DNA of 63,572 nucleotides, the filler included, from Hausera hauseri (lineage: Eukaryota): assembly GCA_046269625.1 (NCBI GenBank). It is 12 parts of 12 records of this genome, joined end to end, with 100 filler letters (N's around TTAATTAATTAA, not from the genome) between each part and the next. Parts side by side here need not be neighbours in the genome. Positions count along the whole stretch, not along the records: positions 14,404 to 22,329 come from JBJURY010870959.1; 11 more parts are not named here. One strand, written 5' to 3'. Below the pieces are notes generated by a model. The model was not told the DNA's origin. It did no database searches and was given only the letters and a program-made list of their open reading frames with translations. Each line of letters starts with the position of its first letter. The stretch's first letter is position 1. Positions 14,404 through 45,400 of the stretch are shown here, in pieces. Position numbers and translations under genes: made by a program.

Positions 14404-17400
14404 AGAATTAGAAAAAGAGGAAGACTTCACCATTATTTTAAGAGATGAAGCAGAGTTGAATACTCCTGTTATAACACAAGACGCTCCGGAAACAATAAAG
14501 ATTCCAAATATTGAGGAAATTAATGAAATATGTCCGTTACCACCAACCGAAGAGAAGTCAAAAGAGGAAAAATCTATTAAATTTGGGAAGATTAGAAAAT
14601 CTTGGAAAAATGCAAATGAACTAACCCAGATAAGAGACGTACTGAATGATCCCGAAAAGCTACAGGAGAACTTGCAAAAACTCCAGCAGAGGAGTAAACA
14701 GTTGGATATCTCCGGAAAAGAACAACAGTTTATAAAAAAGTTATATAAAAAGCTTAAACCAGGTTCTCAGAAAAGGGAAGAAAATACATCGCACGAACTG
14801 CAAGAAATGCCGCAAGACTTGATAAAAAGTTGGCAAAATAAATTAGAACTGTGGACAACGAACGATATCGATTTTACGAAAATATGGTGGAATAAAAAAG
14901 AACCGTTTTTCGATCAAGTTAATCAAGCACAAGGATTGTTAAACACATTAAAAGGTAACCCGAAACTAAAACGCGTAAAACGTAATTTAAAAGGATTGCA
15001 ACACAAGATTGAAGAAGCAATAATTTCTTATCTTCATAGTAAACCAGTATACGAACTGACTAATGCCGACTTAGAGATATTGAGTATAGACCAAATCGAT
15101 ATTTCCTTTTTAATAGAAATGTGCAACTTAATAAAGAATAAACCTAGGAAATACCTAGATCTAAAAATACGTATAGAAAGAGAAAAGGAAATACGAACCA
15201 AAATTAACGACTTTAGGATCGGTATAGTTTACCGTAAAAAGCCAGAAGCACAGAGAATAATATGTGATTGTCTTCTCTAATTCGATGAGTATAGAGAAGA
15301 ATTCAATTATATGAAGCAAATCATAAAATTTTTACGAGGACCAGATCATGAACTGAAAGAAGTTCTTGAGGCATTAGACGAGATAATATATGCTAAACCA
15401 GCGATACCTGAACAATTAAGGAAGTGGATAGACTTGTTACCTTCCATAGCAGGAATAATAAATGAAATATGGAAAGATTTTGCCGTGGTTGAGCCGATAA
15501 TGAAACACCAATTGGAAGAAATGCTAATAGATATCGGTACGTTGGAAGATGAAGCGAAATTGCGAATTAAATTCGAATCATTTCGAGAATTTGATTTTAT
15601 GAGCCAGAATCAAGATCTGACAACGTTAACAGAAATATATACTATGATAGAGGAGAAAGACTTCTACAGAAAAAGAAACAAGCTAAGTGATCTTCAGCTA
15701 AGTTTATTAAACTTCCGTTGGGAAGGAATACAGAACCTAATGCAGAAATCGTTAAAGGAAATCTCTGTACAAGAGATAGAAACATTGGAAATATGTAACG
15801 ACCACCGGATTTCTCTGGCATAGACACTACAGTATTTACAAAATCCAGTTAAATGGACACCAGTTTTTCACCTACATTGCCACACCGAACTAACAGAAAT
15901 TAGAAAGGATCTTCAGCTGACGGCCGACGAAGCCAAGTTCATAGGCAGGCTAATGGACGCAATAGATTCAGACGCTGAAGTACTAAATCAAATGCACAAA
16001 TTAATCTTACTACTAACAGAAATGGCAAAAATCAACGAAGTAGTAGCTAAACGACTAACAAATCGAATAAGGCTGGTAAAAGAAACCCGGCTACGCTCCG
16101 AAAAAAGACAACGCGAGCTAAACGAGTTACTCAGAGAAACAGAAGTTTATTAAAACAAGTATTCCCTCACGGAATCCGAAATGAATGATAACACGGAATT
16201 TATCCATAGATGGCAAAGAGACAGAATAGCGGAAATGACTAGTTATCAGGAGAGAGTGCTGATACAACCAGAAGAAATGTGCCGATTTATAACATTTATA
16301 CAACAGGCGTGAAAAAACAAAGAGGGCTTTAGAATATCCGTTATGAAAATACTGCAACCGCGACTGAGGGAACTACGCGAAAGAGTCCAGGTCTGACATG
16401 CGGCAATAATAAACTACGAGTTACCTGACGCAGATAATGAAGCTGAGTGGGACGAGTATCTCCAAGACCTAACTGAACAAAGTCAGAGAACTCCAAGACG
16501 AATTTATGAATCACTTACTGGTGCACAAAAGACGAAATTTGATGTACAAATGCTACTGGATCCCACACTAGACAAAAAGAAACTGAGCAGTATGTTGAAA
16601 CAAAACATAAGCGAAGATAAATTAAAGAAGTTGATTCCGACCTTGACTAAGCTACATAGTGAGAACACTGCATACAGTGCCGTTCCCAAACTCCTAATAA
16701 TAGAATACGCTAATCGTTTGAGAAACAAACAAGAAGCGGAGATTAAGGTGAAAATATCATCAGAATGGATGGATGATGAGGAATTCGAGTGCACTACTAA
16801 CACCACCGTTGCAGATATAAGACAACAAATAATGGATAAGGTGGTTAAGAAGGAGTTAGTTACCGGCTCTATTTCAGAGGAAGGATATTAGATGAGTTAG
16901 AATCCTTAATAGACGTAGGGATCATACCCCACGAAGAAAATCGAATTATAGCAATAATTGTCAATGAACAAACCAAAGACAAAGCCATAAGGAAGGCACA
17001 TACAGAACACTGTTTCGGAAAAATTGTGGGAATTCAGGACGCCGCAATGTACTTTGAATATTTACAGACGAACGACGATAAATCACCAAAACTTTACCGT
17101 TAGTAAAACCGAAACGGAAGACCAAGAAAAGTAAAGGAAATTGACTATAACGCATATCTAATCAGGGAATTGAGGCCATTATCAGTACCTACCCCGAGCT
17201 CAGATAATGAAGAACTAATCAAACTAATGAGAGATTTAATCAGGATAGTTAATTATACTAGGCTCCAAGGAGACCTATTATCCTAGAAGGAAAGGTTAAT
17301 ATACAATGTAGCTCGGACCATGAAGATTTCGCGATATAAATTATCTAAAAACACCATCCCTGACGAAACACTAATTAACAGAATTATGATAGGCAATACG

Positions 17401-17625
17401 ACGGAAAAATGAAGGAAAGCCTTGATATATTTGGCGATAAAAACAAATCCTCTTCGAGAAAATGAAATCGACAAGTCGATCGGGCTAGCTAGAAAAGCTG
17501 CAAGAAGAATACCTAAAGAAATAAAATGGGCTACATTGTTCAAAAAGGAGGACAATGGGAAAAGAACTAATAACTTAGAAGACATGGTATGAAACATCTT
17601 TTCGAGTAAAGGGAACGAATCAAAT
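14404..17625 (+). pseudogene. ORF-X, ~1000-codon Lys/Glu/Leu/Ile-rich, probably helical protein of unknown function
   Basis: Consecutive + strand ORFs (14456, 15311, 15953, 16550) separated by stops or frameshifts; N-terminal part conserved in C3. Confidence 0.55.
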
Positions 17626-19907
17626 TGGTTAATCAATCTCCTAACGATAGTGATGTTAGTGAAGCAGATGGGAGCAGTTACTATATACGACTGTGACAAA
17701 TTTATGGTGGGTCAGAAATATTCCTTAATGGATTTAGAAACATGCGACGACGCAAGACCTCATAAGCTGGAGACAATAGAAAAGGGATATATATATTATA
17801 TCAACAACGGGAATTAATTGCAATGGATACAACGGAATGCATGATACGGAGATTGCGCAGCGTTTTTCATTGTGGTAATATGCACGGGCATTTTTCAGTT
17901 ATAAAATCAACGACACCATTAATTCCAATGAACGTAGATAGACAACATTGTTTAGGAACCCGGCTAACAGTTAAGATGGTTTGGGATGGCATGGAGTTAG
18001 AAGCCCAGGAAGGAAAGATCATTAGCGCCTACAAAGTGGCAATCAGAAAACTAAATATGCACACGGGATATTGTGTCAGAGCCGAATATGATATCATAAA
18101 AGAAAAGGAAGGAGGAATAGTAGTGGTAAAATTTTATGAAACTGAGTTACGATCCCTAAAAGCGATGTTTCATAGTGTTACCAAACTATTTACTGAAAAT
18201 CAAAAATGTCGCATACAAGATGGCGCTTGTACGTTCCGAAGTTCAGTTGTTGTATAGAGTCCGCCTTCCAAGAGAGAGTGCAACTTCATTAAAATCAAAA
18301 AGTTAAAATTCAATGAGACAACCTGAAAACGCTAAACAAATAAATTACACGCTAATACGAGATCGAGGGAAGACGTAATTGAACATTCCACACCGACGAT
18401 ATTGATATCGGACACACATGGGTTAAAGTTTATTAGGAAGGACATGTTAACACGTTGTGATATAGTTATGTATGCCACAAATTCCGAGGCATTTTTCGTA
18501 GCAAAAACCAAAATCAACATAAAAACGTACGATCTGAAAACGCAAGACATACGGATTGAGGATTACCCCAAAAATAGCGATGACTATTTCTGTTATAAAG
18601 GACAAACCGGAATAGCAGAGCTATATCACAAAATGATAACAAATGACTGCAGGTTAGATACTGAAGTCATAGGAACCAAATTGGCCTTAATTTATGCCAA
18701 CCCAGAATTGGCATCACCGATTATACCCATAAAAGATGGTGTCTTTGGACGAGTTACTGGAGAAGTTCTACTAACTTACGAATGCGTAAAAAGAGATGTG
18801 CCAATAAACGTAGAGGAGAAAAGATGCATAGAAGAATTACCGGTCATCTATGAGAATATGCCGAGATTAGCAATGCCACTCACTCGAGTATTATTTGCAA
18901 ACTCAACCGAACCAACGATACTGAAGGAATGCAAAACGAGCCTGGGTGAGCCCATGTTTCGACGTAGCAGTACAGACTGTATAAGCTTACCTAATGGAGG
19001 CGCTACTACAGCCCCTAGCAAGCTAACTGGAATTAATCTAATCAAAGGACTATCAGAAGAAAAGTTTAAAGATACAGCCAATAAAGAAATTTATAGACCA
19101 AAGGGCATAGAAGCCTTTAGGCAATTTTTAGCATTTCAACGACAAAGAACTTATGAACTAAATCGAGCCATGTCGATGGTCATGGACGATACTCGTTTAC
19201 AGGCAAAATGGAAATCATTATTAGGCGCTAACCACTATCAAAGGGTAACATCAAAAATACTGTATAAAATGCGGCGAAGGTTTCTAATTTTCGGACAAGC
19301 CGCGTCTGGATTGCTAGCTATCTACTTTTTGGTTCAACTATTCAAAGCAGTAATACAAGCCATCATCAACGGATATGAAATATTCACATTAACAGGATTC
19401 TCTTGCAAAATTTTGGCAGCAATCATCACGCCTTTTGGAAAGTAGCTTAAGGCTACGAAAAAAACCGCTGGAAAAACGACGTAGAACGTCATGTTGGATA
19501 CTATAACCGAAAGCGGCGAGGAAAACCCTCGATTTTGTATAGACGTAAAAATAAAACAACAGTAAGACGAAAGGATGATTCATATGATGACGAGCGTAAG
19601 GGAGGAGAAGGAAATTCTAGAATAAAGATGTACAAAATGTACTCGGTAATTAACGCACCATTGCCAATCATGCCACCAATTGCACCAATATATGAAGACT
19701 GCGACCGCAAATCGATCGTATGATGTATCCAAAATATATCAAAAACCTATTAATTGTGAGGATCCTTACGAGAAACCAAAACATTATGGAGTACTACGAA
19801 AAATGAACGCTATAAATCAAGGACCAACAGAAAACGACCACGGGATACTATATTTAAAAAGGATACCGTGTCACATAAATTCAAAATCAAGAATCTGGGA
19901 GAACTAA
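17626..19907 (+). pseudogene. Chuvirus-like envelope glycoprotein with signal segment, TM region and cytoplasmic tail
   Basis: WLINLLTIVMLVKQMGAVTIYDC..YSLMDLETC; ECMI..VFHCGNMHGH; CRIQDGACT; LTRCDIVMYATN; GVFGRVTGEVLLTYEC..RCIEELPVIY..PLTRVL; TM FLIFGQAASGLLAIYFLVQLFKAVIQAIINGYEIFTLTGFS; pattern resembles chuvirus G. Confidence 0.75.
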
Positions 19908-20099
19908 AAACTGTGTTCGATCTCAGGTTTACTACCACAAGAACCTCTCATGGACAGTCGTGTTATTGAAATAACAAATAAGGACTTATATCCGAACGAA
20001 AAATTAAGACAATTAAGACAAGGTATCATTTTATAGCCACAGATAACAATAAATGAACATAGAGTTTCTACTACAAAGCAATTAAAGACAGCGTCAAAT

Positions 20100-22329
20100 T
20101 GCTACAAAACAGTAGCAGAAGGAAAACCCTTCGCTAAAGTACACATCGAAGATTGGGAAGTGTATGAATTAATCGATACGGGATCAGGGAAGTCGTTTAT
20201 AAAATACGAATCAATACCAACCACACTACGAGAACATTTATGCCCACCATTATCGTCAGATCCAGGTAGCGTAGGGGCATTTGGGCAAATATCGAAGCCA
20301 AAATTTAAATGGACACCTACCATTTATATGATGGGCCAAGCACTTCAACATGAATTTGCGATAATGGACCAGTTAACAGACGATGTAGTACTAGGTTGTG
20401 ACATATTGAAACAAATACCAGGTATGGCAATCGATGTGCATAATGGAAAATTAATTGAACTCAAACCAATAAAAGGGACAAAAGTAATAAAGGAAAGGAA
20501 ATCAGGCGAAGTATGGATTCCGGTAGATGAGGACATTCCACCTAGAACCGAAATGACAATTTTCGCACAGATTCGCCAGGATGAAGATCTGCCTCAAGAG
20601 AATATAGATCCAAACCTTATGTTTAGCAATATTTTATGTAGAGTAGTGACGGGACGAATACCTATCAGATTAATGAACAATGCATCAATTCTCGTAAGAT
20701 TGTACGCCAACACTACTCTAAGTCACACTTTTAGAGTATCGACAGTGACAATAGAGGAGAAACCATACAAGTATGCTGAATTTCCACCTCAAGTTGAAAC
20801 CAAATTCTCTCCCGAAGCGTATTGCAAATTTTACGAATTATTGTGTAAATTCCGTTCAATAATAGTGCAAAACGAAGAAGACATAAGCAAAGCAAAGGCT
20901 CTAAGATTAACGATTCCATTGAGGAAGAAACCCCGCTCAAATGACGGAATCGATCTAGAAGAACAGAAAATGCCCAAGTGGTACCCACCTCCTCACTTAT
21001 TGAGATCAGAGATAACTAAAGAGGTAGAGCGAATGTTAAAGGCCGACATAATTCGACCAAGTTATCGATCATGGTACTAACCTATACTTATGGTTAAAAA
21101 GAAAGAAACTACAAAACATAGGTTTTGTATAGATTACCGGACATTGAATACGCTTATGATGAAAGATTCGTTTCCCATACCGTCAGTAAAAGAAGCTTTA
21201 GACAGACTATCAGGACCGATATGGTTTACCACTTTCGACTTGCAGTCGGGATACTGGCAAGTGGAAATCGAAGAAGAAGATCGATATAAGACAGAATTCA
21301 AAACACACGATGGTGTATACGAATTTAATGTTATGCCTTTCGGCATCACCGCCGGACCAGCTATCTTTACCAGAATGATGAATAAAATGCTCATGGGACT
21401 TGATCATGCTTTCGCGTACTTAGATGACGTGATGATAGCATCATAAACAGAAGAAGAACATGTAAAGGACATTGAAGACACGCTTATGCGATAAGAACAA
21501 GTCGGATTAAAACTAAACCCGAAGAAATGTAAATGGGTACAGAATGCAGTATCGTACCTCGGATACATAGTTGAAGAAGGAGGATCGAAACCAGATAAAT
21601 CTCTACTAAATAAGATATCCGATTGCATGGAGCCGCAGAACTAAAAAGAACTAAGAAATTGGTTGGGCCTAGGTGGGTATTATGCAACTTACGTACCAGA
21701 CAACTCAAAAATTAATGCACCATTATATCGTTTACTTAAAAAATGAACTAAGTGGATATGGACAGAAGTGGAACAAAAAGCATTCGATGAAATGAAAAAA
21801 ATCTTGACAAGCGAACCCGTTGTAAGATACCCAGATTTTAACCTAATATTCATAATTAAAACGGATGCAAGTAAAGAAGGTATAGGGTACGAATTAGCTC
21901 AGAAACGTGAAGACGAAGAATTAGAACATCCAATAGCCTAAGGAGGACGCTCATTAAAGAAAGCAGAAAAGAATTTTTCGGTTACCGAATTAGAAACGGT
22001 AGCCGTTAAGGAAGCATTACGACACTTTAATGTCTATGTTTACGGACAGAAGATTATAATAGTAACGCATAACAAAGCAGTTACAACATTGAAAGGACCA
22101 GCTAACAACCCAACATACAGATTAAATCATTGGATCGAGGAAATTTTACGATATAATATTGAATTCCAATATAAACCAGGTAACAAACACGTTGACGCCG
22201 ACGCTTTGTCAAGATTGAAAACAAAAACGAGCGCAATCATCACACTTAAGAGACCACAACTTAAACAACTAATTGAACGACAAAGAACCCTAATATCGGA
22301 TAAGACAATGAGAATTACAGCTGAGCAAG
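20100..22329 (+). pseudogene. Gypsy pol: aspartic protease, RT, RNase H (runs off the contig before integrase)
   Basis: LIDTGS, VVLGCDIL, RFCIDYRTLN, FDLQSGYWQV, MPFG, AYLDD, KTDASKEGIG, SVTELE, HVDADALSR. Confidence 0.93.
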
Positions 22330-27176: not shown

Positions 27177-30100
27177 ATTAATGCAACATGCCCGTGAGGT
27201 AGTGTGTTTATTCCATCACCCATCATCTGCCTTCTATCATCATCAAATCTAGGCTTTTCTTCTGTAATGTTACTGTCTCAATGTCATAAGTCCTAGACTG
27301 GATCCTTCGCATCTCTGATATGATGAGTCTGCTCATGCAGAACTCTCACATAGTCATCGAAGCCAATCTTCTTGGCTCAGGCCGCCCTTTCAACCCCTTT
27401 AGCCCGCTTCCTTACTTGACCATATACATCAATGACATACATTTTGGACCTAAGAGCCACAAATCTCGAGATGATTGCCACATTCATCTCGTCTTTAAAT
27501 TTCCCAAGGACCTTTTGTTGGTAACTGAATAGTTGGGATGCTCCTTCGGATAGTCAGACGCGTCCATATGCTGAGCCAACTTAGCAAAGTCCTCATAAAT
27601 GTCCTCTGTATGGATCTGATAGACGAAACTATCAGCATCCATATACATCAGCTTTATGGACTTGAATGTGGGGACCATGATGATCATGTAAAATTTGTAC
27701 ATCAAGGTCTTTGCCAGGTCCAGTATTGCCATACCCACATATATGGGCTTGTTGAATTGCAAGGATGTTTTCAACATATAGATGCTGACCAAGCTCTTCG
27801 CATATATGTTACTGCTGTGGAAGTTGGGCTTGGCAATGAGCATCTTTGCCCGCTTCCACGCAGAGACTAGTTCGATGTTGATCCTGTTGCGGATGTTTTC
27901 CATGGTCTTGCAAAAAACGCTGTTCTTGTAAAGCTTGAACTGGTCCTTCTGAAAGTCGTTCTTAAAATTTTGTCCGTAGCTTGGTATTGAGATCAATATA
28001 TGGCTGAAGCCAGTTGGACTAGCTGAACTGCAGGGCCCGATGGATCTTCGTAATGCGGAATCCATTTCTTACCGCCTACTGAAGATTTATGCAGTGGACT
28101 ACATACCTCTCCCTATTACCCAGATGACAGAGCAGCTTTCTCTGCTTTCCATGGAGCAAAGGCTTGATCTCAGGGAGGAAAGGCAGCTGTTGATGCCTTG
28201 TGTGGATAGAAGCTGGATATTCTATATCAACCTCCAGTATGCATCCCGCATCTGCAGAGGGATCCAGGTCCGGTATAGGGATGTTTTCAGGATGCTCGAC
28301 CCACTTGAAGTCATCATGTGGCAATGGGGCGCTCATTGCCCATCCATACAAATTGTTGGCATCCAGGTAAGAAATATATGATGACTCCTTTGTTGAGTCG
28401 TATTCAGCCATATACTTGTTGCTGGCCTCACTATACCGGTGAATGGCCTAGCATATTCCGCCTCTAATGCCTCTCTCGATCATAAGGATCATGTCGTAAT
28501 CCTTGATGATCTGCATGATTATATATCTCAGCATAGATGCCCAACGCATCCCTGGAGTCTTAAAAAAATGAGCCGGATCCAATGCATGGCTCTTCATTGT
28601 AACATCCCTGAAACTCTCAAAGACATCCGTCAGAAGCAGCACGTCCGTCGTGAGGTATATGTCGCTGTATTCTCCTAATGTTCGACATTGAACGCATGCC
28701 AGACGTTCTGAGAATGCTGGTAGTCCTCATCACTGATATCGCAATCAGAGGATATTGTAAAAGTCTCTTGGCCGATAATGAGGTCTAATCCAGTGTTTCC
28801 CATGATGTGACAGTCATAGGGAAACACGCCTTTCCTTTTGACGAAGTCAAATGTAGTACGGAAGAACCTCTTCGTCTCCTTGAGTTCTTCTGCAAGAAGG
28901 TTCTTCACTAAACTAACAAGCGAAAACGACATGAATCGGAAACTGTCTACGAAGCGAAGCCTGATTTTCCCAACATGCTTCGTAAATCTGATGTACTTCT
29001 CTACACTGTTGGGGATCACATCAATGTTTCCTTCAATGCTGCCAAGTTCCCGAACAATGAAATGGGAATCATGGCCACTGAGATTGTGGAACATTACAGG
29101 AACATATGTACATGTCTTGCAACGTAGTTTTCAGTTGTTGCATGCCGCGCCTCGATATGTGCCTGTAAAATGGCAATGATCCCTGACTTTATAATTCTCC
29201 TTAGTGAATGATTTGGAGCAAAAGTAACATGCTGTTGCCTTGCGCCATTCTTCTTGTTGCTTCGACATGCTCATTGTATCCTTATGCTGCAGCAGGATAT
29301 CTCCAGGCCTATGAGCCATATCTTCAAGTCATTTCATGAAATGAGCTGCTGCGCCTGGACCTCTGAATAGATATGGTTCACTGTCCAGTCCTTTGGCATA
29401 CATGCAATATGATGAAAGCTCATGATATTGGTAGGCCGTTGTGCTGCTATATTGGGGATTATGACTGCAACTCTACTGGACGCAGAATAGCCTCAAAGTC
29501 CCAAGTGATAACTATTAGGACCTTGATCTTCTTCTCGAACTCCTTGAATTCAATGTAATCCTCCTTGGGAAATTCTGGCCTCATAAAATAATTATTGTTG
29601 CAGTACATCTTGTGCTCTTTCAGCATCAATACAGCTACATCGCCGCTGAAATGGGACAAGCATAGTTTGCATATTTCTATTTGTCCATGATGTTTCGTAA
29701 TTTGTGATCTGACTAGCCGTTCAAAGTCTGATCCAAAGATAATGTTTCTTTTCTCCATCGTCTAGTAGGAGGAGATCCCTATGATCTTCCAATTCAGCAT
29801 CGCATATTTGCAGGGGATAGAATTTGTCCTCCTCATCGAATCCCAAGATATTGATGGACATGTTGTTGACTTTTCCTATTTTTTGACTTCATCTATGGAT
29901 GGAGGGAACTTGATACATTGGAAGTCATAGTTGCGCTGCACATCCTTATATAGCCAAACTCGTGAAGCATGACTTTGATCAGTTACGAGTTTTGATAGAA
30001 CGGCATACATGAAACACATGTTGGCGCTATTATGGACATTGACACATGCTTTTTTATTAACGATCCCATCTAGGAGCATGAAGGAGTACTTGTGAACATA

Positions 30101-32514: not shown

Positions 32515-33708
32515 GTAATTTCATGTTTGTTTACTTTAATTGGATGTTCTGCTTTTATATCATACATACGGTTTAATAGAATTAAAAATGAAAATGCAGT
32601 GTTTTCTAAGTGTAGTATTTTCTTTGAGGAGAGTATTTATTAATCGATAGAAAATGATCGTTCAACCTTAGCAGGCACCAACAATGGCAACTTTATCTCT
32701 AAACGAAACTCACCATTTTCTTGACTAACTGCCTCTAACATGAATTGATTCATGCTGTACATTGTCATTGATTAATAACAAGTTATTTCAGTAGGCCGCA
32801 GATGATTCCGAAAAGAGTAGACAATTTCCAAATTCCACTTCTTAAGAAATAATTATTTATGTTTAAAATATGTGCTGTTCAACTTCTATTGTCTGGCCAT
32901 CAAGTTTGTGGATATTTTCAATGTAAACAGATGGAAATCAGTCCACGAACTTAAGTGCCATAGCATTCAGGTGAAATAAGGTGGTGAATTATTCGGTTTT
33001 CCACATACAAGTGTATGACTCATTTCAAAGTAAAAATATCATTTTGAAGTGTTACTCTGTGTTGAATATAAATAAATGTAAATGATATATTCAGTTGTTA
33101 TGTCACACAAATGCCGTCAATGGTTTCGTGTTGGCTGTCGGCCTTGTTGTGTCCGCATCAGTTTCTTCGGCGATATTTGAAATGAAGTTTAAAAAATGAA
33201 GGAGTGTAATATACTTCTGATTAGTACATTTTATTCTCCATGAAATTCTACACTTGGACGTTATATTTAAAGTTAATTTAAGAAACAATGAAGCTGAGTT
33301 TCAGAGTTTCGTAAAATGGTTTTACTGGCAATTAAGCGTTATAATGTAATGAAAAGTTACGAGGATCAATAAAACAGAAGACAAAGAATATCGCGATTTC
33401 GCTAAATCATTCGTTGCATGAAACAGAAAATTGAAGGCCTTTTTGTGTCAACATAAAAAATATGATTGCTCAAAATATCAAAGTACCTAACGATCATCAA
33501 CTTACTGTTAGGCCACTAGGATTTAAATGCGGAAGAAGCTGTATCAAGATTAGAACGATGACAGAATTAGAAGAGAATAGAGCAATAAGCATAACACTTA
33601 CCGACGTTCAAAAGAAACAAAAGATACCTACAAAATGCCTAATTGACTCACGAGCATCTCCGAGTTTGCTGTAACGCTTTACGATGAAGAACCTACGATT
33701 CAGAATTT

Positions 33709-34425
33709 GTGTTAGTACGAAAGGATTCAGGGAGTATCAAGGCTCTAACCCATCAAGGACCCAGGACATATGCGCAACTCAAAAATGATAGTGAATGTGA
33801 CGACGATGGGCAACCAAGTGTTACGACACCCGTTGTAAAGTCCTCACTATTTAATAAAATAAGAGAAATGACCGTTCTCATTCGACCTCACGCTTCATCT
33901 TATGATCATAAGCGTTCCGTTTTAGAAAATGTTACAATATCTTCCACGTCCACTTCCCTAGTTCTATTTACCCAACCTGACTTAAATTTATATAAAATAA
34001 AACTTATTTGTAAGTTAGGTCAAAAGATTGTAGCAAAATGCATAATCACTCCAGATGATACTATAGTACCATGCGCAGATCTAAATCCAAACACTAAGTA
34101 TACAGTCATATTGCAATTATATAGAGATGATAATACAATAATCTCCACTAAATTATTAACAGCCTTGACAAAGGCTAAAATGCAACAAGTAAAGAATAAA
34201 ATAAGTACCAGCTCAGGCAAAAATCTACCACTACCAAAATCACGTTATACCTACTGCCTGATAGAACTAATACTAATAAGCACAGTATGCCCCATAGTTC
34301 TCCTACTTCTGTTAGCGCTCATTATAAAAATAATCGTTTGTACGCAAAAACGTCGCAAATCAAACTGGGTTAGAATAGACATGCGACGTATACCGAAAAT
34401 CTTGGATACTGATAATCCAAGTTGA
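33709..34425 (+). CDS. Single-pass membrane protein with an FN3-like domain (probably element-borne)
   Basis: NVTISSTSTSLVLF..DLNPNTKYTVILQ (FN3 LxPxTxY motif), TM LILISTVCPIVLLLLLALIIKIIV, basic stop-transfer KRRK. Confidence 0.5.
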   Translation: MLVRKDSGSIKALTHQGPRTYAQLKNDSECDDDGQPSVTTPVVKSSLFNKIREMTVLIRPHASSYDHKRSVLENVTISSTSTSLVLFTQPDLNLYKIKLICKLGQKIVAKCIITPDDTIVPCADLNPNTKYTVILQLYRDDNTIISTKLLTALTKAKMQQVKNKISTSSGKNLPLPKSRYTYCLIELILISTVCPIVLLLLLALIIKIIVCTQKRRKSNWVRIDMRRIPKILDTDNPS

Positions 34426-35120
34426 CGATGACTTCTGTGGATTGTTGTCGACGCAATCCGAAAAATTAAGATAACTGAATATTACTCAATTACCGCAAAA
34501 ACCAATAAGAAATTTAAAATAACAACAATTACCAAATCGAAATATATGATAACCGCTGTACTATATTTAAGATTTTGTCATATGTATATGACATTGATTT
34601 TTATAGTAACGGACATTCAGGCCGTGCAGCGCAGCAAGAATTTTTATGAAAACACCAGAATTCATCTCATAAATGCAAATCCTTCCAACCAATATCATAT
34701 CCGAGTCAATAAAAACACGTACAGTCTCAATTATTCACTAGTTAAGCAGATACCCAACAATCTCAAGGGGTATGCAATTGGAAATCAATCTATGGCATTA
34801 GTCCACATCACAAAGGCCACCTCATTTCCTCTACACGATTTGATCAGTTTCTCGGATAAATTTCTAGTGTTAACATTTACAATATCATTGGCAAGTTCCA
34901 GATAAAGGTCAAGGACATCAAAACAAATCAACAAAGAGACCTAATCAATTTGGACCCAAATCACGGAATGGTGCGCCCATTCGAGGTAATTAAAAGAAAT
35001 ACTCTCAAGATTCGTACTTTAACTAATCGGATCATGCTTGGAGTGGGACTAATAAAAGCTGAACCCATATGGACAACACCTCCCTAAAGAAAATGTTTCA
35101 ACCTGACAAAATCCGATTAT

Positions 35121-35650
35121 TTGAAATATACAGATAAATTATATGGACGGGTGTCAAAGATCTCCGACAAAGACACTGTGGTGGCCGCAGTCAATCTGGC
35201 CTATGACCAAAACAACCAACTCATAGCAATAGAATGTTCAGTAATAAATCTCCAAGGAGACACCTTGTTTCACATCATGATCACTCCTCGACAAAGAGTC
35301 AACAATTTTGACTCCCATATTACCAGGCTCACTGAAAGTAACATTAACAATCAGATGGACGCTAATACATTCTATCAAAAGATCTCAGCCGTCCTGAATA
35401 ACAAGATAGTCGTTGGAGCCGTAGTACTAGAGATGTTACGGAAACATCTCCTCTGTCCGCTGCGTCGAATTATGGAAGTGTGTGATGTGCTTTATCACGA
35501 AGACATAATTCGGACGTACAAATTAAAAACCAAGACTTATTATTGGAGTTGGCAAAGAAGTTCTATGAAATGAAAGGAATGCCATTCCGCAGTATGGCAT
35601 TAGTGCAATGTTATCATGCCTTATATAAAACTCTACGTTGGGACGATGAA
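35121..35650 (+). pseudogene. DEDDh (REX4/ISG20-like) exonuclease-fold remnant
   Basis: ECSVINLQGDTLFHIMITP..VNNFDSHITRLTE..NKIVVG..LLELAKKF; ExoI acidic residues absent; frameshift near 35545. Confidence 0.55.
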
Positions 35651-36802: not shown

Positions 36803-38146
36803 ATGGCAAACCATAATGCAAACGTAGTAGAACAGTACGTCCAGTCAAAGGCGGACTACATCTTACCCATGAAGAAGTTTAGTGGAAAGGAAGACGTACA
36901 GGATTTTATGATGGAATACGCAGTGTACTCCTGAAGCTTTGGATGGAGCGACCAACAACGGATGGAAAGATTGCCTTTTCATTTAAAGGGAATAGCCCTA
37001 ACAATTTATTTTCAGATGCCAGAAGATAACAAGAAGGACTGAAAGTCCATTAAGGATTAGTTGCCACAGAAGTTTCTAGTTGATCCCTCTGAAAAGGGGA
37101 GGATAGAAAAATTTATATGAAGAAGGCAGCGCAAAGATGAATCAGTCCAAGATTACGTATGTGCACTGGAAAGATTGGCAACACGGGCATACCCCGACGT
37201 AACGATGAGAAGCAATGCATTGTTGGCCCAATTCCAATACGGATTGGAAGAAAAGCTAAGGGCAATAATTTTACAAGCCGACCCGTCTACGTTTTAAGAA
37301 GCTATAAGGAAAGCTCGTAAAGCTGAACGAGATATGAAACTATATAGATGGAACAAGTCTAAAAGCTACGAAGATAAACAAGATAAAAGGAAGAACAATA
37401 GTACACAAAAATATCAACGGTATGATAGGAACAGGAGCCCATTCCAAACATCAGCTACGGAAGCTGAATCAGATGTGTAGGAAAAGGTCAGATTTAAGCT
37501 GAAGAACGATGGAAAAAAGTCGAACTATAAGAAGAAATCGTCTATGAAAGATGGAAGGGCATTACCTAATATAGATTCAGAAGGGAGATTGAAATGTTTT
37601 AACTTCAATAAATATGACCACATAGCAAAAACATGTAGGTCACGAAAAAGGGGAACTTCAAAGTCCAATGACAATAAACAAAAGAAGGATTATACGTCAG
37701 CCACTTCGGACGAATCATCCGACAAAGAATGTGAAACAGAAGATAGCGAACAATAAATCAAAAAGAAAGATAAAAAGAAAGAAATTGTAAACTATGTTCA
37801 CAAGATATTATCTCAAGGCATGAAAAAGCAGTTAGCCATAGAGTTGAAGGACTATAAACTCAATAGAAACGGCTGAGAGAAAATAGTATTTCCGTAACGG
37901 AAGAGAAGCCAAAAAGAGGAAAACCTCGACAAAGAAGAAAGAAAGGTAATAAAAACATAATAGAAGAGGGGGAATCCAGAGAAACCTCTGCGGAGAAAAG
38001 CGAGGTAGAACAAAAGAAAAGAGGAAGAGAAAAAGTAAATCTGGTGAGTCAACGTCAGAGCAGAGTGAGAAAGAAGTACAACCTACAAAAATTTTTGATG
38101 AGACCGTCATTGAACAAGTGATACATGATATAGACGTGGATTTGGA
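36803..38146 (+). pseudogene. Gypsy gag, degraded
   Basis: KFSGKEDVQDF..LPFHLKGIAL..RRQRKDESVQDY..LERLATRAYP..FQYGL; degenerate knuckle CFNFNKYDHIAKTC; multiple stops. Confidence 0.85.
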
Positions 38147-39119: not shown

Positions 39120-42100
39120 CCAATGTTTATACGCTCAACTTTATTTCGCCCCATCAACTTTCGCTTATCATCGTTACATGACAAAGCGATTTTGCACTAG
39201 TTATTGTGTACAGCTAGTGTTCAGTTGTTTGGATGATAGCTTGAGACACAACAGCAACTGATTGTCCTCCTTCTGCCGTTTCTTCGTATATACGACGATA
39301 ATCACCGTGGTCGATTTCCGTCTGTCTCAGCTGGACTCATTTTGCCCGCATTTTCGGTCCACAATCCGTCAGAAGACTGTAGTACTTTGGGCGTAGGAAT
39401 AACCATTCCCGATAATGAACCTTGCCTTCACTTTTACTCTTGAAGCAACCGATTTTGTTGGTGATTGCGCTGCTGTACAACGGATGATCCGATGGATAGT
39501 TGGACGTGTCCAGTAATCCATCTGACTGCATATGCTACAATAGCTTTTCGTGACTGGCTGTTGTCAGCCACAGGAAAAAACTGTCTGTGTCACCGGAAAT
39601 TATACTAATATCACAGCCGTCAAACATTTGCCGGTAACGTGCCAAATCGCGATACTGTAGCTCATACATCCACAACTTGTTCAGGCCCAATACCAACTGT
39701 CCGATGTAACTTGGCCGGTCCAGAACGAATTCTTCTCTGTTTAACAGCAGGGCAACCAATCCATCGTGAACGTGCATTGACCGCCGAAACTGCGCCTTAC
39801 TCGTGTACGTAACCAACCGCTTTTCGCTATTGCATAGGCGTACATTGAGCCGCTGTTTCAGATTCTTCACTGTTTTTCCGTACAGAGAATTGTTTTTCAA
39901 CTTGTACTAGTCCTTTTCGAACTTTGTGAAAGCTGTCGTTCGTTTCTCCGAATTTTCGTCGATGTACGCCTTGAATATGGGAGCCTGACCAAATGGGATT
40001 GCACGATGCAGCTGGGTGACGCGTACACTGAGCTGTATGTAGAACTGTAGAAGACGCCAATGGACCACGTAATTCAGCTTTGGTTCATGCTTCATGATCA
40101 GTTTCTTCACTTTTGAGCCTGGCGGACATTGGTTAAATGGTGCGACCGGTAAATCGTCCAAAACGTCATGCAGTTCATCTGGTACCACGAGATCAACCTC
40201 CATCAAGTATCCGACAGAGATGCCATGTCTGCTCGTGGTAGGTTGACCATTATGTCGTCCAGATCTTGTGTGTCGGCAGCCCATTCGAATGAACCGTACG
40301 GCAAGGGTTACGAAAGCGCCCAGCCATGCAGGTTATTTATATCAATATACAGCAGTGATGTGATATCGGTAGTACTGACCTGATGCTTGTTGACAAATGT
40401 CATGCCGCAGCGAATACCAACATTAAACAGCCGGTACATTTTCGGGTGTTTCAGCAGCTCAATGTCTCGATCCAGTGACGTTAGAGCAGTATGGAATAAA
40501 ATTTGAGTAGCTCCAACATATCTTCCGCCAGCGCTTTGGTCCGTAATGCTTGAAACACGTCGGCTAATAAGTACACGTCCAGTTTAAGATACTGGAGCAT
40601 GTAATCCAACAAGTTTCTACAGCCGAGTTCTGTGCAACACCTCTGTGCTTTCTGGTATTCATTTTCTGCGATACCTATGCATCGCTGCGGTAATTCCTCT
40701 GCTGTCCGGAGTCGCTCATATGATGTTTCAAAGTCAATATGTGCGTGCAATATGTGCGGGAAACTGCGTCAGTGCTATCGGCACATCTGTCAAGGCATTT
40801 ACCATCTTTGTTAATGATTTATTGAGAAATTGCAATGAATCAAGGAAGCGCATCTGGAACCGGTTTATACGAACAGACATCCATAAGTTTTTTTCCATCG
40901 TAGTCGGAATTATGGATAGTTCCCAGTGCAGAAATCCGTTTATTGCCCATTTCAAAATATGTGACAATAATAACCCCTGAAGTTATGAAATACCACTGGA
41001 AAGAATAGCCGCACATGCTTTGCCAAATTGCATGAATTACATGCTGATCCAAGATATCGACCAGTAAAATGATCGTGATTCGTCACAAGCCGCTCCAGTG
41101 CGTCAAACGGTAATATTTTGTGGCAAAGGTAACATTTATCTGTGACTGCAAATATAAGGCGTTCATCTTTATCTGTCCACATCAAGAGTTTATTGCTATT
41201 TCTACTACCAGGATGCGATTTCAGTTTCCACTATGGTTTGCAAATGCTGCAAGAAATGGCGTACACAATTCCATCTGTGGAAAACATAATATTGAGTTTG
41301 ACCTACGGCTTTTATTGGGACAACCAACATGCGGACGGCAATTGGAACATGTTTTTTGTCATATATGTTGTGCTGTGGTAAGGTAGGTACGATATCGGCA
41401 TATACTACATATGCCTCACTGTCCGTTTTTGACCAATCAGTGAACCTGAGTTCCTGTTTGAGGGCATGACATACATTGTGGTTCCTGACGAATTTTGTCT
41501 GTACACAGTCACATGTTTCTTCCATGTTGTTTGCGACCTGAATCCATGAAGATATACAGGACCCCATTTACATTGTATCAGTTTTTGGAGGAAATGGTCA
41601 TGCTCTATGTTCAGTAGTCTGTCCAGATTTGCCACGGCAACGTAATGGTAATTTTCTTTTTGTTCCAGTAGCAACAAATTTACTGAGCGGCCATTTGGGT
41701 TCAGACTACGATAGATTATATCCACATGAGGATTTTTGTAAATTTCTTCATCCGCTGGTATTTCTATTATTGTGTTATACCGGAACACGTTGATTGCCAG
41801 TGTCGGATTACGCTGTTCAAAAGCCGGAATGGATTTCAGTTTCATCGGCATCCAGCTTTCATCGAAATTCAATTCGGAAAAATATTTCTGATACCTTTTT
41901 GGACGAGATGCAATCTCTTTCCACTTCGTTATATTTTAATACCGCCAGAATACTGTAAAGAAAACGGTATTCATTGTTAGTATTTTTTACATTCACTACC
42001 GCCAGAGACTGCTTCAGAGCTGCAAGTGTCAGTACGAATGATCGGCCAGACAAATATATTATGTCACTGGACTTTGTTATGATAAAGTCGAGGGTGGCAA

Positions 42101-42409: not shown

Positions 42410-45400
42410 CAAATGTTGTAAAGGGGAATTGCAGAAATGCCAAATGATGTAAGGGGGAATTGAAGGAGTGCCAAATGATGTAAGGGAGAATGGAAGAAGT
42501 ACCAAATGATATAAGGCGGAATTGAAGAAGTGCCAAATGATGTAAAGTGGAATTGAAGAAGTGCCAAATGATGTAAAGGGGAATTGAAGAAGTGCCAAAT
42601 GCTGTAAGGCGAAATTGAAGAAGTGCCAAATGATGTAAATGTGAATTGCAGAAGTGCCAAATGATGTAAGGGTGAATTGAAGAAGTGCCAAATTATGTAA
42701 GGGGCAATTGAAGAAGTGCCAAATGATGTAAAGCGGAATTGAAGTATTTCCAAATGATGTAAGGGGGAATTGAAGAAGTGCCAAATGATGTAAAGGGGAA
42801 TTGATGAAGTGCCAAATGATGTAAGGGGGAATTGAAGAAGTGCCAAATGATGTAAGGGGCAATTGAAGAAGTACCAAATGATGTGAGGCGGAATTGAAGA
42901 AGTGCCAAATGATGTAAAGGTGAATTAAAGAAGTGCCAATTGATGTAAGGGGCAATTGAAGAAGTGCCAAATGATGTAAGGGGGAATGGAAAAAGTGCCA
43001 AATGTTGTAAATTTGAATTGAAAAGTGCCAAATGATGTAAGGGGCAATTGAAAAAGTTCCAAATGGTCTAAAGGAGAATTGCAGAAGTGCCAAATGATGT
43101 AAGTGGGAATTGAAGATGTGCCAAATGATGTAAGGTGGAATTGAAGAAGTGCCAAATTATGTAAAGGGGAATTGAAGAAGTGCCAAATGATGTAAGGGGA
43201 ATTGAAGAAGTGCCAAGTGATGTAGGGAGGAATTGAAGAAGTGTCGAATGATGTAAGGGGGAATTGAAGAAGTGCCGATTGGTGTAAAGGGAAATTGAAG
43301 AAGTGCCAAATGATGTAAGGGGCAATTGAAGAAGTGCCAAATGATGTAAGGCGGAATTGAAGAAGTGCTAAATGATGTAAGGGGGAATTGAAGATGTGCC
43401 AAATGTTGTAAAGGGGAATTGCAGAGGTGCCAAATGATGTAAGGGGGAATTGAAGACGTGCCAAATGTTGTAAAGGGGAATTGCAGAAATGCCAAATGAT
43501 GTAAGGGGGAATTGAAGGAGTGCCAAATGATGTAAGGGGGAATTGAAGAAGTACCAAATGATATAAGGCGTAATTGAAGAAGTGCCAAATGATGTAAAGG
43601 GGAATTTAAGAAGTGCGAAATGCTGTAAGGCGGAATTGAAGAAGTGCCAAATGATGTAAGGGGGAATTGAAGAAGGGCCAAATGATGCAAAGGGAAATTG
43701 AAGAAGTGCCCAATGATGTAAATGGGATTGAAGAAGTGCCAAATGATGTAAGGGGGAATTGCAGAAGTGCCAAATGATGTAATGGGGAATTGAACACGTG
43801 CCAAATGTTGTAAAGGAGAATTGCAGAAATGCTAAAAGTTGTAAGGGGGAATTGAAGGAGTGCCAAATGATGTAAGGGGGAATTGAAGAAGTACCAAATG
43901 ATATAAGGCGGAATTGAAGAAGTGCCAAATGTTGTAAAGGGGAATTGAAGAAGTGCGAAATGCTGTAAGGCGGAATTGAAGAAGTGCCAAATGATGTAAG
44001 GGGGAATTGAAGAAGTGCCAAATAATGTAAAGGGGAATTGAAGAAGTACCAAATGATGTAAAGGGAAATTGAAGAAGTGCCCAATGATGTAATTGGGAAT
44101 TAAAGAAGTGCCAAATGAGGTAAAGGGCAATTGCAGAAGTGCCAAATGATGTAAAGGGGAATTGAAGAATCTCCAAATGATGTAAGGGGGAATTGAAGAA
44201 GTGCCAAATGATGTAAAGGGGAATTGAAGAAGTACCAAATGAAGTAAGGCGGAATTGAAGAAGTGCCAAAAGATGTAAAGGTGAATTAAAGAAGTGCCAA
44301 ATGATGTAAGGGGCAATTAAAGAAGTGCCAAATGATGTAAGGGGGAACTGAAGAAGTGCCAAATGTTGTAAAGGTGAATTGAAAAGTGCTAAATGATGTA
44401 AGGGGCAATTGAAGAAGTGCCAAATGTTGTAAAGGGGAATTGCAGAAGTGCCAAATGATGCAAGGGGGAATTGAAGAAATGCCAAATGATGAAAGGTGGA
44501 ATTGAAGTAATGCCAAATGATGTAAAGGGGAATTGAAGAAGTGCCAAATGATGTAAGGTGAATTGAAGAAGTGCCAAGTGATGTAAGGAGGAATTGAAGA
44601 AATGTCGAATGATGTCAGGGGGAATTGAAGAAGTGCCGATTGGTGTAAAGGGAAATTGAAGAAGTGCCAACTGATGTAAGGGGGAATTAAAGAAGTGCCA
44701 AATGATGTAAAGGGGAATTGAAGAAGTATCAAATGATGTAAAGGGGAATTGAAGAAGTGCCAAATGATGTAAGGGGCAATTGTAGAAGTGCCAAATGATG
44801 TAAAGGGGAATGGAAGAAGTGCCAAATGTTGTAAAGGGGAATTGCAGAAGTGCCAAATGATGTAAAGGGATATTGAAGACGTGCCAAATGTTGTAAAGGG
44901 GAATTGCAGAAATGCCAAATGATGTAAGGAGGAATTGAAGGAGTGCCAAATAATGTAAAGCGGAATTGAAGAAGTACCAAATGATGTAAAGGGGAGTTGA
45001 AGAAGTGCCAAATGATGTAAAGTAAAATTGAAGAAGTGCCAAATGATCAAAATGCGAATTGAAGAAGTGCCAAATGGTGTAAGGGGGAATTGAAGAAGTA
45101 CCAAATGATGTAAAAAGGAGTTGAAGAAGTGTCAAATGAAGTAAAGGGAAATTGAAGAAGTGCCAAATGATCTAAATGGGAATTGAAGAAGTGCCAAATG
45201 ATGTAAAGGGAAATTGAAGAAGTGCCAAATGATCTAAATGGGAATTGAAGGAGTGCCAAATGATGTAAGGGGGAATTGAAGAAGTACCAAATGATGTAAA
45301 GGGGAGTTGAAGGAGTGCCAAATGATGTAAGGGGCAATTGAAGAAGTGCCAAATGATGTAAAGGGGAATTGAAGAAATGCCAAATGATGTAAAGGGGAAT

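Follow-up and report, generated by a model that had tools for sequence, protein, structure and literature searches.

Organization of the locus

The window that we analyzed is a 63,572-nt stretch of 12 contigs joined by N spacers, and the contig described here, C4, occupies positions 14404-22329 as a whole contig of 7,926 nt within a fragmented and repeat-rich assembly. On the plus strand, which carries every feature given below, C4 reads from 5' to 3' as a helical region, a ubiquitin-like domain, a weak Bcl-2-like domain, a signal-like segment, a class III glycoprotein, a tail, a protease, a reverse transcriptase (RT) and an RNase H. The order glycoprotein, tail, protease, RT and RNase H on one strand that an earlier note had proposed is confirmed, while the gag knuckle which that note placed in front of them is absent from C4. 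The contig starts within the region upstream of the glycoprotein (ORF-X) and ends just past RNase H, with neither gag nor integrase on it; in database relatives integrase follows RNase H. C4 is decayed, with many stops and frame changes: it is a member of a high-copy Ty3/Gypsy family that has been inactivated by mutation.

Pol is of Ty3/Gypsy type, as first proposed, with RVT_1, RT_RNaseH and RT_RNaseH_2 all above cut-off and with Ty3 RT the best match of the RT among solved structures (E 4.9e-76, compared with 1.3e-54 for caulimovirus-type and 2e-28 for retroviral enzymes). The aspartic protease (20121-20417) contains DTG at 20175 and matches Pfam RVP at E 8.6e-5, and at 3.2e-4 with X at stops. 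The RT (21096-21572; RVT_1 E 1e-35) has YLDD at 21417 and in-frame stops, and it is followed by RNase H (21759-22154; RT_RNaseH_2 E 8.4e-30, RT_RNaseH E 8.7e-24) before the contig ends at 22329, ahead of integrase. A BEL/Pao origin of C4 was rejected, as the Pfam scans returned no BEL/Pao-type family and the RT-RNase H is of Gypsy type. Between protease and RT lies a conserved spacer domain (20508-20750), recognized with a profile from 7 relatives that within the window matches only C4 (iE 1.8e-5) and the related copy C3 (iE 5.6e-7). Since this profile also matches 16 of 80 other Gypsy loci, the spacer is not diagnostic.

A class III glycoprotein upstream of pol

On the evidence of sequence and model, a signal-like segment, a class III ectodomain and an anchor give C4 an HSV/gB-type envelope. 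An internal, signal-peptide-like segment at 17626-17676 is the sole hydrophobic peak upstream of the ectodomain and aligns with a pre-ectodomain segment in 11 relatives; from the alignment, cleavage is predicted before 17677. The gB/chuvirus-type ectodomain (17677-19283) has a frame change near 17787 and stops at 18255, 18324 and 18333. Pfam PF24664 (Monjiviricetes_fusion) matches two open pieces of it at E 3.6e-8 and 5.1e-35, and a translation with X at stops at E 5.2e-43 over profile positions 61-593 of 653. An AlphaFold2 model of 17766-19442 (105-row alignment) reached a pLDDT of 87.7, and its top Foldseek matches were chu-like virus G (E 1.2e-30) and herpesvirus gB (E 1.8e-11). The earlier identification of a chuvirus-like class III fusogen is thus borne out by both profile and structure. 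The membrane anchor region (19284-19442), in which the main hydrophobic helix (19284-19340) is followed by another hydrophobic stretch (19380-19436), was seen by hydropathy, has helices predicted in the model and shows a motif common to relatives. Word-indexed protein searches with an env piece and a protease piece found no match, nor did env and RT searched against viral contigs, and nowhere in the env alignment was conservation high enough to scan for loci.

The region upstream of env

ORF-X is not without features, since a ubiquitin-like and a weak Bcl-2-like domain lie at its end. Its front part (14405-16550, ∼715 codons, the start lost at the contig edge) is probably helical or coiled and has in-frame stops at 15278, 15821, 16151, 16310 and 16394. 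This part contains no Pfam family at threshold and no BLAST match among the env relatives, 16397-16888 gave no useful match against Atlas, and a single-sequence fold of ORF-X was not usable (pLDDT 35.6). These ∼700 residues of ORF-X, left without explanation, may be a novelty of the C4 family.

A helical domain followed by a ubiquitin-like domain occupies 16559-16965, with a frame change near 16850. Against a profile of P0010, P0018 and P0024 this region ranked at the top of 2976 windows (E 4e-4), and with X at the break it scored 25.3 bits, which 0 of 500 shuffles reached. The ubiquitin-fold label depends on Pfam matches below cut-off, to UCH_UBL1 (E 0.013) and PI3K_rbd (E 0.03) in C4 and to ubiquitin in the relative P0024 (E 0.031), while homology to the relatives' domain was scored separately.

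The Bcl-2-like domain (17290-17565) is decayed and weakly supported, with a BH2-like motif in a second frame. Pairwise against P0024 it scored 65 (0 of 1000 shuffles), or 54 in a single frame (5 of 1000); the same comparison with P0006, P0007 and P0018 was not significant. Profile scores ranged from 8.0 to 12.8 bits depending on where X was placed (0-2 of 500 shuffles), the break having been picked after the motif was seen, and the signal was absent from a one-frame window scan. Three of the five relatives scanned match Pfam Bcl-2 below cut-off (E 0.001-0.2) and P0006 matches Bcl-xL structures at E 0.01; the Bcl-2-like part of P0024 gave no usable match against Atlas.

The signal segment had been described as continuing the upstream frame across one TGA at 17590, without an intervening ATG. 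Both details stand, but four further stops lie upstream in that frame (17101, 17104, 17284 and 17410). The BH2-like motif near 17527-17560 sits in the frame adjoining that of the signal segment, which suggests that there are probably additional frame changes in this region.

The tail and an env-less related copy

From the anchor to the protease extends a coding tail (19443-20120) with stops at 19443, 19721, 19905 and 20034 and two frame changes. Its mismatches to C3 by codon position (21/19/49 in 81 codons) show a third-position excess, which argues that the tail is under protein-level constraint. That it leads toward the protease, as had been suggested, is supported by diverged contigs that bridge 19326-19492, 19856-20015 and 19873-20059. 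A Tyr-Pro motif at 19989 recurs at this place in 10 of the 11 relatives, whereas shuffling gives 2.5 on average, and this conserved motif ahead of the protease may be new. We rejected the motif as the exact protease N-terminus, given that its distance to DTG spans 30 to 92 residues; it is possibly a sorting motif, or a site that the protease cuts at some other boundary. In the open literature, subscription journals aside, we found no paper on this motif.

C3 (10960-14303) is a related copy with ∼66–69% nucleotide identity to C4 in four blocks (BLASTN, TBLASTX); the first 335 nt of ORF-X are 65.5% identical. It reads as an N/R-rich gag-like end, a degenerate knuckle, the ORF-X start, the tail, the protease and the spacer, and the ORF-X start joins the tail directly at ∼12380, such that ∼4.6 kb including env is missing. 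The gag knuckle that had been assigned to the element by way of C3 fared less well than its surroundings. Only 2 of 4 zinc ligands are present near 11356 and a profile of 8 knuckles from relatives failed to detect it, while 5 of 7 relatives compared have counterparts both of the N/R-rich stretch preceding it and of an R-x-V-x-F motif that follows. By this position and motif we infer the gag of the C4 element from its deleted relative.

Database relatives with env before pol

When env was searched against 1.84 billion representatives, retroelement polyproteins ranked first (E 3e-70 to 7e-26) and free-standing glycoproteins of ∼650 aa came behind them (E 5e-20 and weaker). Among 16 long env matches scanned, 5 contain env, protease and RT in one ORF and 5 more have env and protease by Pfam; a gag or knuckle family lies upstream of env in 3 of those matches plus P0024. 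Two cluster members add full env-PR-RT-IN ORFs, giving 7 relatives with env, protease and RT in one ORF. P0024, P0018, P0010, P0279 and P0005 share with C4 the series env, Tyr-Pro motif, protease, spacer and RT. The helical and ubiquitin-like domains before env recur in P0024, P0018 and P0010 by profile and in P0279 by eye, and a Bcl-2-like domain in P0024, P0018, P0006 and P0007. These unnamed polyproteins are only 23–31% identical to C4 in env and 40–44% in RT-RNase H, and several have 2-7 protease copies whereas C4 has a single recognizable one. With RT-RNase H at most 45% identical to any match, the C4 family is divergent and may be new.

Frame continuity among family copies

The C4 family is high-copy: 20,120 contigs match it in run X1, which may equal the source sample, and 1,677 in X2, with 30 of 30 bins covered. 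The matching contigs show 1894 differences from C4, and no single one spans the whole stretch. Over the env-protease side, to which this support from other copies applies, most copies differ from C4 inside the three stops there. The X1 depth differing was 131.9 of 140.9 at 19443-4, 197.1 of 202.3 at 19905-6 (14 contigs) and 415.4 of 437.5 at 20035. Together with the 7 one-ORF relatives, this upholds the earlier suggestion of a single polyprotein as the likely native state of the family.

We also considered the same element and order with env or pol as a separate ORF, that is gag-X-env followed by pol through reinitiation, splicing or read-through. C3 has stops at the site matching 19905 and then ∼400 nt of extra AT-rich, non-coding DNA before the protease region, with an ATG at 13077, consistent with pol as an ORF of its own in the C3 subfamily; the depth of matching contigs also dips at 19860-19950. 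Set against this, the X1 copies differ inside the 19905 stop, diverged contigs cross it without a gap, the relatives have one ORF, and the stretch from 17590 to the signal segment is free of ATG. A separate ORF seems to us very improbable.

Phylogenetic placement and host

In the env tree, C4 falls in an 11-row group with elements bearing the ubiquitin-like and Bcl-2-like domains (SH-aLRT 98), within an 18-row group (99); the sole BEL-like match, P0072 (DUF5641 then env), lies in the other half of the tree. The RT-RNase H tree places C4 with all 7 env-before-pol proteins, which were picked by env and not by RT, and with 2 loci that may or may not carry env, and separates it from the remaining 66 Gypsy loci (99). 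The grouping recurred when 29 rows were analyzed under a mixture model (98), and a 9-row RT tree was unresolved. The RT-RNase H trees are quick searches in which C4 is a long branch whose placement within its group is unresolved. The other loci came from a metagenome RT scan that returned 80, and the profiles of env and of the ubiquitin-like and Bcl-2-like domains matched none of these; the 68 with at least 330 aa of RT-RNase H entered the tree as context only. Because both env and RT trees place C4 with env-before-pol elements, its layout looks inherited rather than newly captured.

This bears on the earlier proposal that the C4 Gypsy lineage captured a chuvirus-like glycoprotein independently, which would have happened in parallel to Burro and the nematode elements. 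Published GAG-ENV-POL elements are described as not monophyletic in the POL tree (PMC13524379), C4 is a long branch, and its top structural matches are chu-like virus glycoproteins; as BFVD lacks retroelement envs, however, its ranking cannot reveal the donor. The C4 env resembles other retroelement envs, at up to 31% over the long matches, more than it does free-standing glycoproteins, the domains before it have homologs in these same retroelements, the RT groups with them too, and the layout has already been published. We consider a fresh capture very improbable.

That the glycoprotein stems from a separate viral insertion, from a preceding or nested element beside a Gypsy pol or from misassembly is rejected as highly unlikely: in arthropods, chuvirus-derived insertions are reported often to adjoin fragments of Gypsy and BEL elements (PMC10084718), and the assembly is fragmented, without a spanning contig and with C3 lacking env, but self-comparison of C4 found no repeat >30 nt and hence no LTR pair flanking the glycoprotein, no LTR-like repeat separates it from the protease, diverged contigs bridge both the env-tail and tail-protease junctions, the tail is constrained, relatives show this order within a single ORF, and C3 keeps both env flanks in that order, as an internal deletion would.

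As for the host, an Hsp70 on contig C1, linked to C4 by the shared window only, falls with Dugesia (92/86) in a group of flatworms (93/97), on unstarred branches and with Schistosoma outside that group. The host of the C4 family is on this placement likely a flatworm.

A proposed Gag-X-Env-Pol polyprotein

Taken together, we conclude with good confidence that C4 is a dead copy of a high-copy Ty3/Gypsy element, likely of a flatworm, with a fusogen upstream of PR-RT-RH, likely as part of a single Gag-X-Env-Pol polyprotein that descends from an ancient lineage of Burro type. In such a polyprotein, synthesis of Gag and X (helical, ubiquitin-like and Bcl-2-like) would take place in the cytoplasm. 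Translocation would begin at the internal signal segment, behind which signal peptidase would cleave, and the ectodomain would pass into the ER lumen until the anchor stops transfer, which would leave the tail and Pol back in the cytoplasm, where the element's own protease could free the enzymes. Pol would then enter the particle through its link to the Env tail and not through one to Gag, with a stoichiometry of ∼1:1:1. Particles would bud with the fusogen and could enter neighboring stem or germ cells, and the ubiquitin-like and Bcl-2-like domains may be accessory, host-modulating cargo.

A bolder extension appears doubtful when all of its parts are taken jointly. It holds that Pol is delivered by the fusogen tail and not by Gag, that Tyr-Pro(-x-Leu) is a YPxL-type budding signal, and that these elements are obligate enveloped, ESCRT-budding retroviruses with a flavivirus-like polyprotein. 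In this view C4 would also mark a deep new family, perhaps from flatworms of a group for which no such elements are on record, and C3 would have lost env through deletion of both membrane segments at once.

The C4 family bears on how a single polyprotein with a membrane-crossing fusogen mid-way is processed and packaged, and on cell-to-cell spread of such elements in animals that reproduce through adult stem cells. For this question of processing, packaging and spread the conserved Tyr-Pro motif is a concrete handle.

Comparison with known systems

An env invariably placed 3' of pol is no longer a valid expectation for this group, and C4 does not constitute a new enveloped lineage as had been proposed, as env-before-pol is known from planarian Burro (PMC6431247) and from nematode, bryozoan and flatworm Gypsy elements (PMC13524379). 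In Burro, env is in frame and separates gag from pol; the order is SUMO-like, BCL2, env, PR, dUTPase-like, RT (PMC6431247). Compared by description, Burro/GYPSM1 and C4 share a Ubi/SUMO-like domain, a mononegavirus-related env, protease, spacer, RT and RNase H, and the weakly supported Bcl-2-like region of C4 would correspond to the BCL2-like domain of Burro; env occupies the same position in C4, between the Bcl-2-like region and the protease. C4 further resembles Burro in the very high copy number of its family and in its probable flatworm host, and decayed Burro copies are noted for Dugesia japonica (PMC6431247). Burro/GYPSM1 is >30 kb, with long LTRs, an ORF1 of ∼4,900 aa and MATH, BIR, RING (AIR1) and ankyrin cargo (PMC6431247). 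The Pfam scans found no MATH, BIR, RING or ankyrin in C4, which we therefore file as Burro-like and not as Burro; the front of its ORF-X also has no match, and its spacer has no Pfam dUTPase match where Burro has a dUTPase-like domain.

Anakin, a BEL/Pao element with a chuvirus glycoprotein in mosquitoes (PMC7642597; PMC10084718), shares the PF24664 superfamily with C4 and differs in retroelement superfamily. The non-canonical nematode endogenous retroviruses (Sacco et al. 2022, cited in PMC13524379) are, like C4, of Gypsy (metavirus) type, with a captured RNA-virus glycoprotein before pol, and their hosts are nematodes. Chary and Hayashi (PMC13524379) catalogue GAG-ENV-POL Gypsy elements with gB/chuvirus-type env in Nematoda, Bryozoa and Platyhelminthes, with 9 entries from flatworms (Macrostomum 1, Prostheceraeus 2, Schmidtea 6) and 10 from bryozoans in their table. 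C4 resembles them in layout, with a Gypsy POL and, before it, a gB-type env related to Chuviridae envelope genes. By description those elements are intact, many with LTRs, whereas C4 is decayed and partial and would fail the catalogue's rule of intact, uninterrupted ORFs. The main text of PMC13524379 contains no occurrence of ubiquitin-like domains, Burro or dUTPase. The ubiquitin-like/Bcl-2-like/env block is common to several unnamed database elements beyond the described planarian ones. To this Burro-like GAG-ENV-POL group, whose layout is itself published, C4 adds a strongly diverged and very abundant family.

Organization of the C4 element

The window consists of 12 contigs with N spacers between them, and the contig at 14404-22329 (C4; GC 37%) is taken up over its whole length by the element. 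With X written at stop codons, its plus strand reads as ORF-X, the region 5' of the glycoprotein (828 codons, five stops), a stretch in another frame, closing with the signal-like segment and the first part of the ectodomain (328 codons, six stops), the glycoprotein (559 codons, three stops), a tail, and pol (807 codons, seven stops). Pfam matches were PF24664, the Monjiviricetes fusion glycoprotein (E 5.2e-43), RVP, RVT_1 (1e-35) and RNase H (8.4e-30), and the best solved match for pol is the Ty3 RT (E 4.9e-76). Gag and integrase are absent from this contig. The first 715 codons of ORF-X matched nothing in Pfam or among the env relatives, and a single-sequence fold of them was unusable. Frame translation reproduced two details of the earlier note, the TGA at 17590 and the absence of an ATG before the signal-like segment at 17626.

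We modelled the glycoprotein with AlphaFold2 from a 105-row alignment (pLDDT 87.7). The model matched chu-like virus glycoproteins with a best E of 1.2e-30 and herpesvirus gB with a best E of 1.8e-11 (TM about 0.37-0.40). By its predicted fold the C4 glycoprotein is thus a class III fusogen, and the chuvirus-like identity proposed from sequence is upheld by both PF24664 and the model.

Evidence that env is part of the element

An LTR between env and protease was looked for as a sign that the glycoprotein belongs elsewhere. C4 contains no repeat longer than 30 nt, only 17 short direct families and no off-diagonal BLAST match. C3, a window contig holding a related, env-less copy, matches C4 in four BLAST blocks at 65-69% identity. 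Mismatches between the two by codon position are 21/19/49 over 81 codons of the tail and 44/38/89 over 179 codons of the protease; with a pattern like that of the protease, the tail is coding.

In C3 the order is an N/R-rich stretch, a degenerate knuckle, the start of ORF-X and then the tail from about 12380. About 4.6 kb, including the ectodomain and both membrane segments, is missing, and judged from this alignment the gap reads as an internal deletion. The gag knuckle that the earlier note took from C3 keeps two of four ligands and was not picked up by a profile of knuckles from eight relatives, while a motif 3' of it is shared with five of seven relatives. Since the C3 knuckle is degenerate and missed by the profile, a gag upstream of the C4 ORF-X is only inferred.

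The C4 family is represented in two public sequencing runs by 20,120 contigs (X1) and 1,677 contigs (X2) at an identity to C4 of at least 80%, with 30 of 30 bins covered. The X1 contigs divide into 1,049 at 99% or more, 3,135 at 95-99%, 7,856 at 90-95% and 8,080 below 90%; as X1 is possibly the source sample, these counts show copy number inside one genome rather than spread. Among the 40 of 101 matches listed for 19300-20200, contigs with 22-34 differences span the anchor-tail junction (19326-19492), and such diverged contigs also run from the tail into the sequence ahead of the protease (19856-20015, 19873-20059). In the same listed matches most of the depth departs from C4 within the stops at 19443, 19905 and 20034, which for this reason look private to the C4 copy.

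Env, pre-env domains and RT probably share one history

A full HMMER search with the C4 glycoprotein recovered 307 proteins with E values up to 0.001, with retroelement polyproteins on top. Nearly all of the relatives are entered as proteins of assemblies under no name of their own. We scanned 16 long matches for Pfam domains. Five of these (P0005, P0008, P0011, P0017, P0022) carry env, protease, RT and RNase H in a single ORF, and five (P0007, P0009, P0010, P0013, P0016) carry env followed by protease. A Pfam gag or knuckle family lies 5' of env in P0010, P0016 and P0024. Beyond these 16, P0155 and P0279 are full env-PR-RT-IN ORFs, the former with ankyrin repeats. P0007-P0010, P0013, P0016, P0155 and P0279 contain 2 to 7 DTG/DSG protease-like copies per polyprotein, and in several of these a membrane protein follows integrase at the C-terminal end. 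NCBI lists P0005, which is a full Gypsy env-pol polyprotein, as a Flavobacteriaceae MAG hypothetical protein; the entry is probably animal DNA within a bacterial bin.

The gag-env interval of the relatives holds two domains, one helical plus ubiquitin-like and one Bcl-2-like, with all Pfam and PDB matches below cut-off. In C4, 16559-16965 is the best of 2976 windows for the helical plus ubiquitin-like profile. Placing X at the frame change gives this stretch 25.3 bits, a score that none of 500 shuffles attained. The Bcl-2-like stretch at 17290-17565 is weak, being significant against one of four relatives and scoring 8-13 bits with a frame break picked after the motif had been seen.

In an env tree of 53 rows from a quick search, C4 lies within an 11-row group of ubiquitin-like/Bcl-2-like elements (SH-aLRT 98), nested in an 18-row group with env-before-pol proteins (99), and most free-standing glycoproteins of ~650 aa fall outside C4's group. 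In an RT-RH tree of 76 rows, including 68 of 80 metagenome loci, C4 groups with all seven env-before-pol proteins and with the metagenome loci L001 and L002 (99), whose contigs start too near RT for env to show. A mixture model on 29 rows (quick tree) gave the same split (98). C4 is a long branch here, at 45% identity or less to any RT-RH. The agreement of env, pre-env cargo and RT points, at the level of sequence, to a single inherited architecture, and the independent capture by a Gypsy lineage suggested in the earlier note is unlikely, as each of these ties C4 to env-before-pol relatives. L001 (7268-10371) and L002 (6861-9920), close RT relatives of the C4 group, have two extra ORFs of 443-491 aa 3' of the long pol ORF.

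Proposed topology and a Tyr-Pro motif

We propose that a single internal signal segment together with one main anchor would give a cytoplasm-lumen-cytoplasm path, with Gag-X outside the ER, the ectodomain inside, and tail and Pol outside. Signal peptidase would split X from Env, and Pol would stay tied to the Env tail until released by the element's own protease. Hydropathy reveals a second hydrophobic stretch at 19380-19436; a crossing by this stretch alone would make Pol luminal, so the scheme requires that it does not cross, and we take it as a putative re-entrant or surface helix. C3 has stops at the site corresponding to 19905 and extra AT-rich DNA ahead of the protease region, which counts against a polyprotein.

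Ten of 11 relatives carry a Tyr-Pro dipeptide 30-92 residues ahead of their first protease DTG, against a mean of 2.5 and a maximum of 7 in 2000 shuffles; the count leaves out P0013, cluster-mate of P0279. Five of the 11 have the YPxL form (shuffle mean 0.21, maximum 3). C4 has Tyr-Pro at 19989 with no Leu at the YPxL spacing, and in C3 the proline is missing. YPxL acts as a late domain bound by ALIX, retroviral proteases cut at aromatic-Pro, and YxxL serves as a sorting signal; for this motif the three are alternatives that sequence does not distinguish here.

Host and other sequence in the window

The intact, intron-free Hsp70 of contig C1 (2250-4175) groups with two Dugesia proteins (92/86) inside a group with cestodes (93/97); neither branch is starred, and Schistosoma falls outside. 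On this basis the host is likely a flatworm, the Hsp70 being joined to C4 by the shared window only. The two ends of C1 share an exact repeat of 77 nt.

Contig C7 holds a decayed Gypsy gag (36839-38146) with a knuckle-like motif and 54% identity over 159 aa to the P0024 gag (E 9e-41), a second env-in-the-middle family of the same group in this assembly. Three ORFs of 245, 157 and 161 aa lie 5' of it (33688-35573) and may represent the 3' end of another copy in front. The 245-aa ORF has a membrane segment and a weak match to the post-integrase domain of P0005/P0279/P0155 (iE 0.034); the 161-aa ORF, for which Pfam gave nothing at cut-off, may be exonuclease-like. An intron-free PI3-kinase gene piece (9907-10897; Pfam PI3K_rbd, PI3K_C2), which may be captured host sequence, lies directly 5' of the gag-like stretch of C3. 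The start of the C3 element (10951-11059) has a 110-nt inverted match of 79% in contig C2 (7023-7132), adjoining a DNA polymerase B fragment. Fragments of protein-primed, Polinton/Maverick-like DNA polymerase B occur at 5997-7106 (Pfam DNA_pol_B_2 E 9e-18) and, recognized by eye, at 27484-29130 and 41405-41935. Other Gypsy sequence comprises a gag-like stretch in C5 (24646-25877; DUF7041, E 0.047) and an element in C12 (59032-62369) with RT, RNase H and integrase, at 31% identity to the C4 RT-RH. Tandem repeats with a unit of roughly 31 nt form two long arrays, at 42410-46779 and 54438-58931. LINE-like ORF1 and ORF2 pieces in C10 (49839-52001) may be akin to teleost L1/Tx1 elements, which would be compatible with some fish DNA among the contigs.

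Comparison with published elements

C4 belongs to a divergent Gypsy family of the Burro-like GAG-ENV-POL type, of which it is a dead copy; the finding is real, was rightly noticed and is mostly known already. PMC6431247 describes Burro, the planarian giant Gypsy-like elements, as one ORF with Gag, Ubi2/SUMO-like, BCL2, env, PR, dUTPase-like and RT domains, matches its env to mononegavirus glycoproteins of arthropods and fish, and presents it as the first case of an env placed in frame between gag and pol. The catalogue of such elements in PMC13524379 reports gB-type env in GAG-ENV-POL Gypsy elements of Nematoda, Bryozoa and Platyhelminthes, citing Sacco et al. 2022 for the nematode case, and finds the chuvirus-like glycoprotein of mosquito BEL/Pao also beside Gypsy pol.
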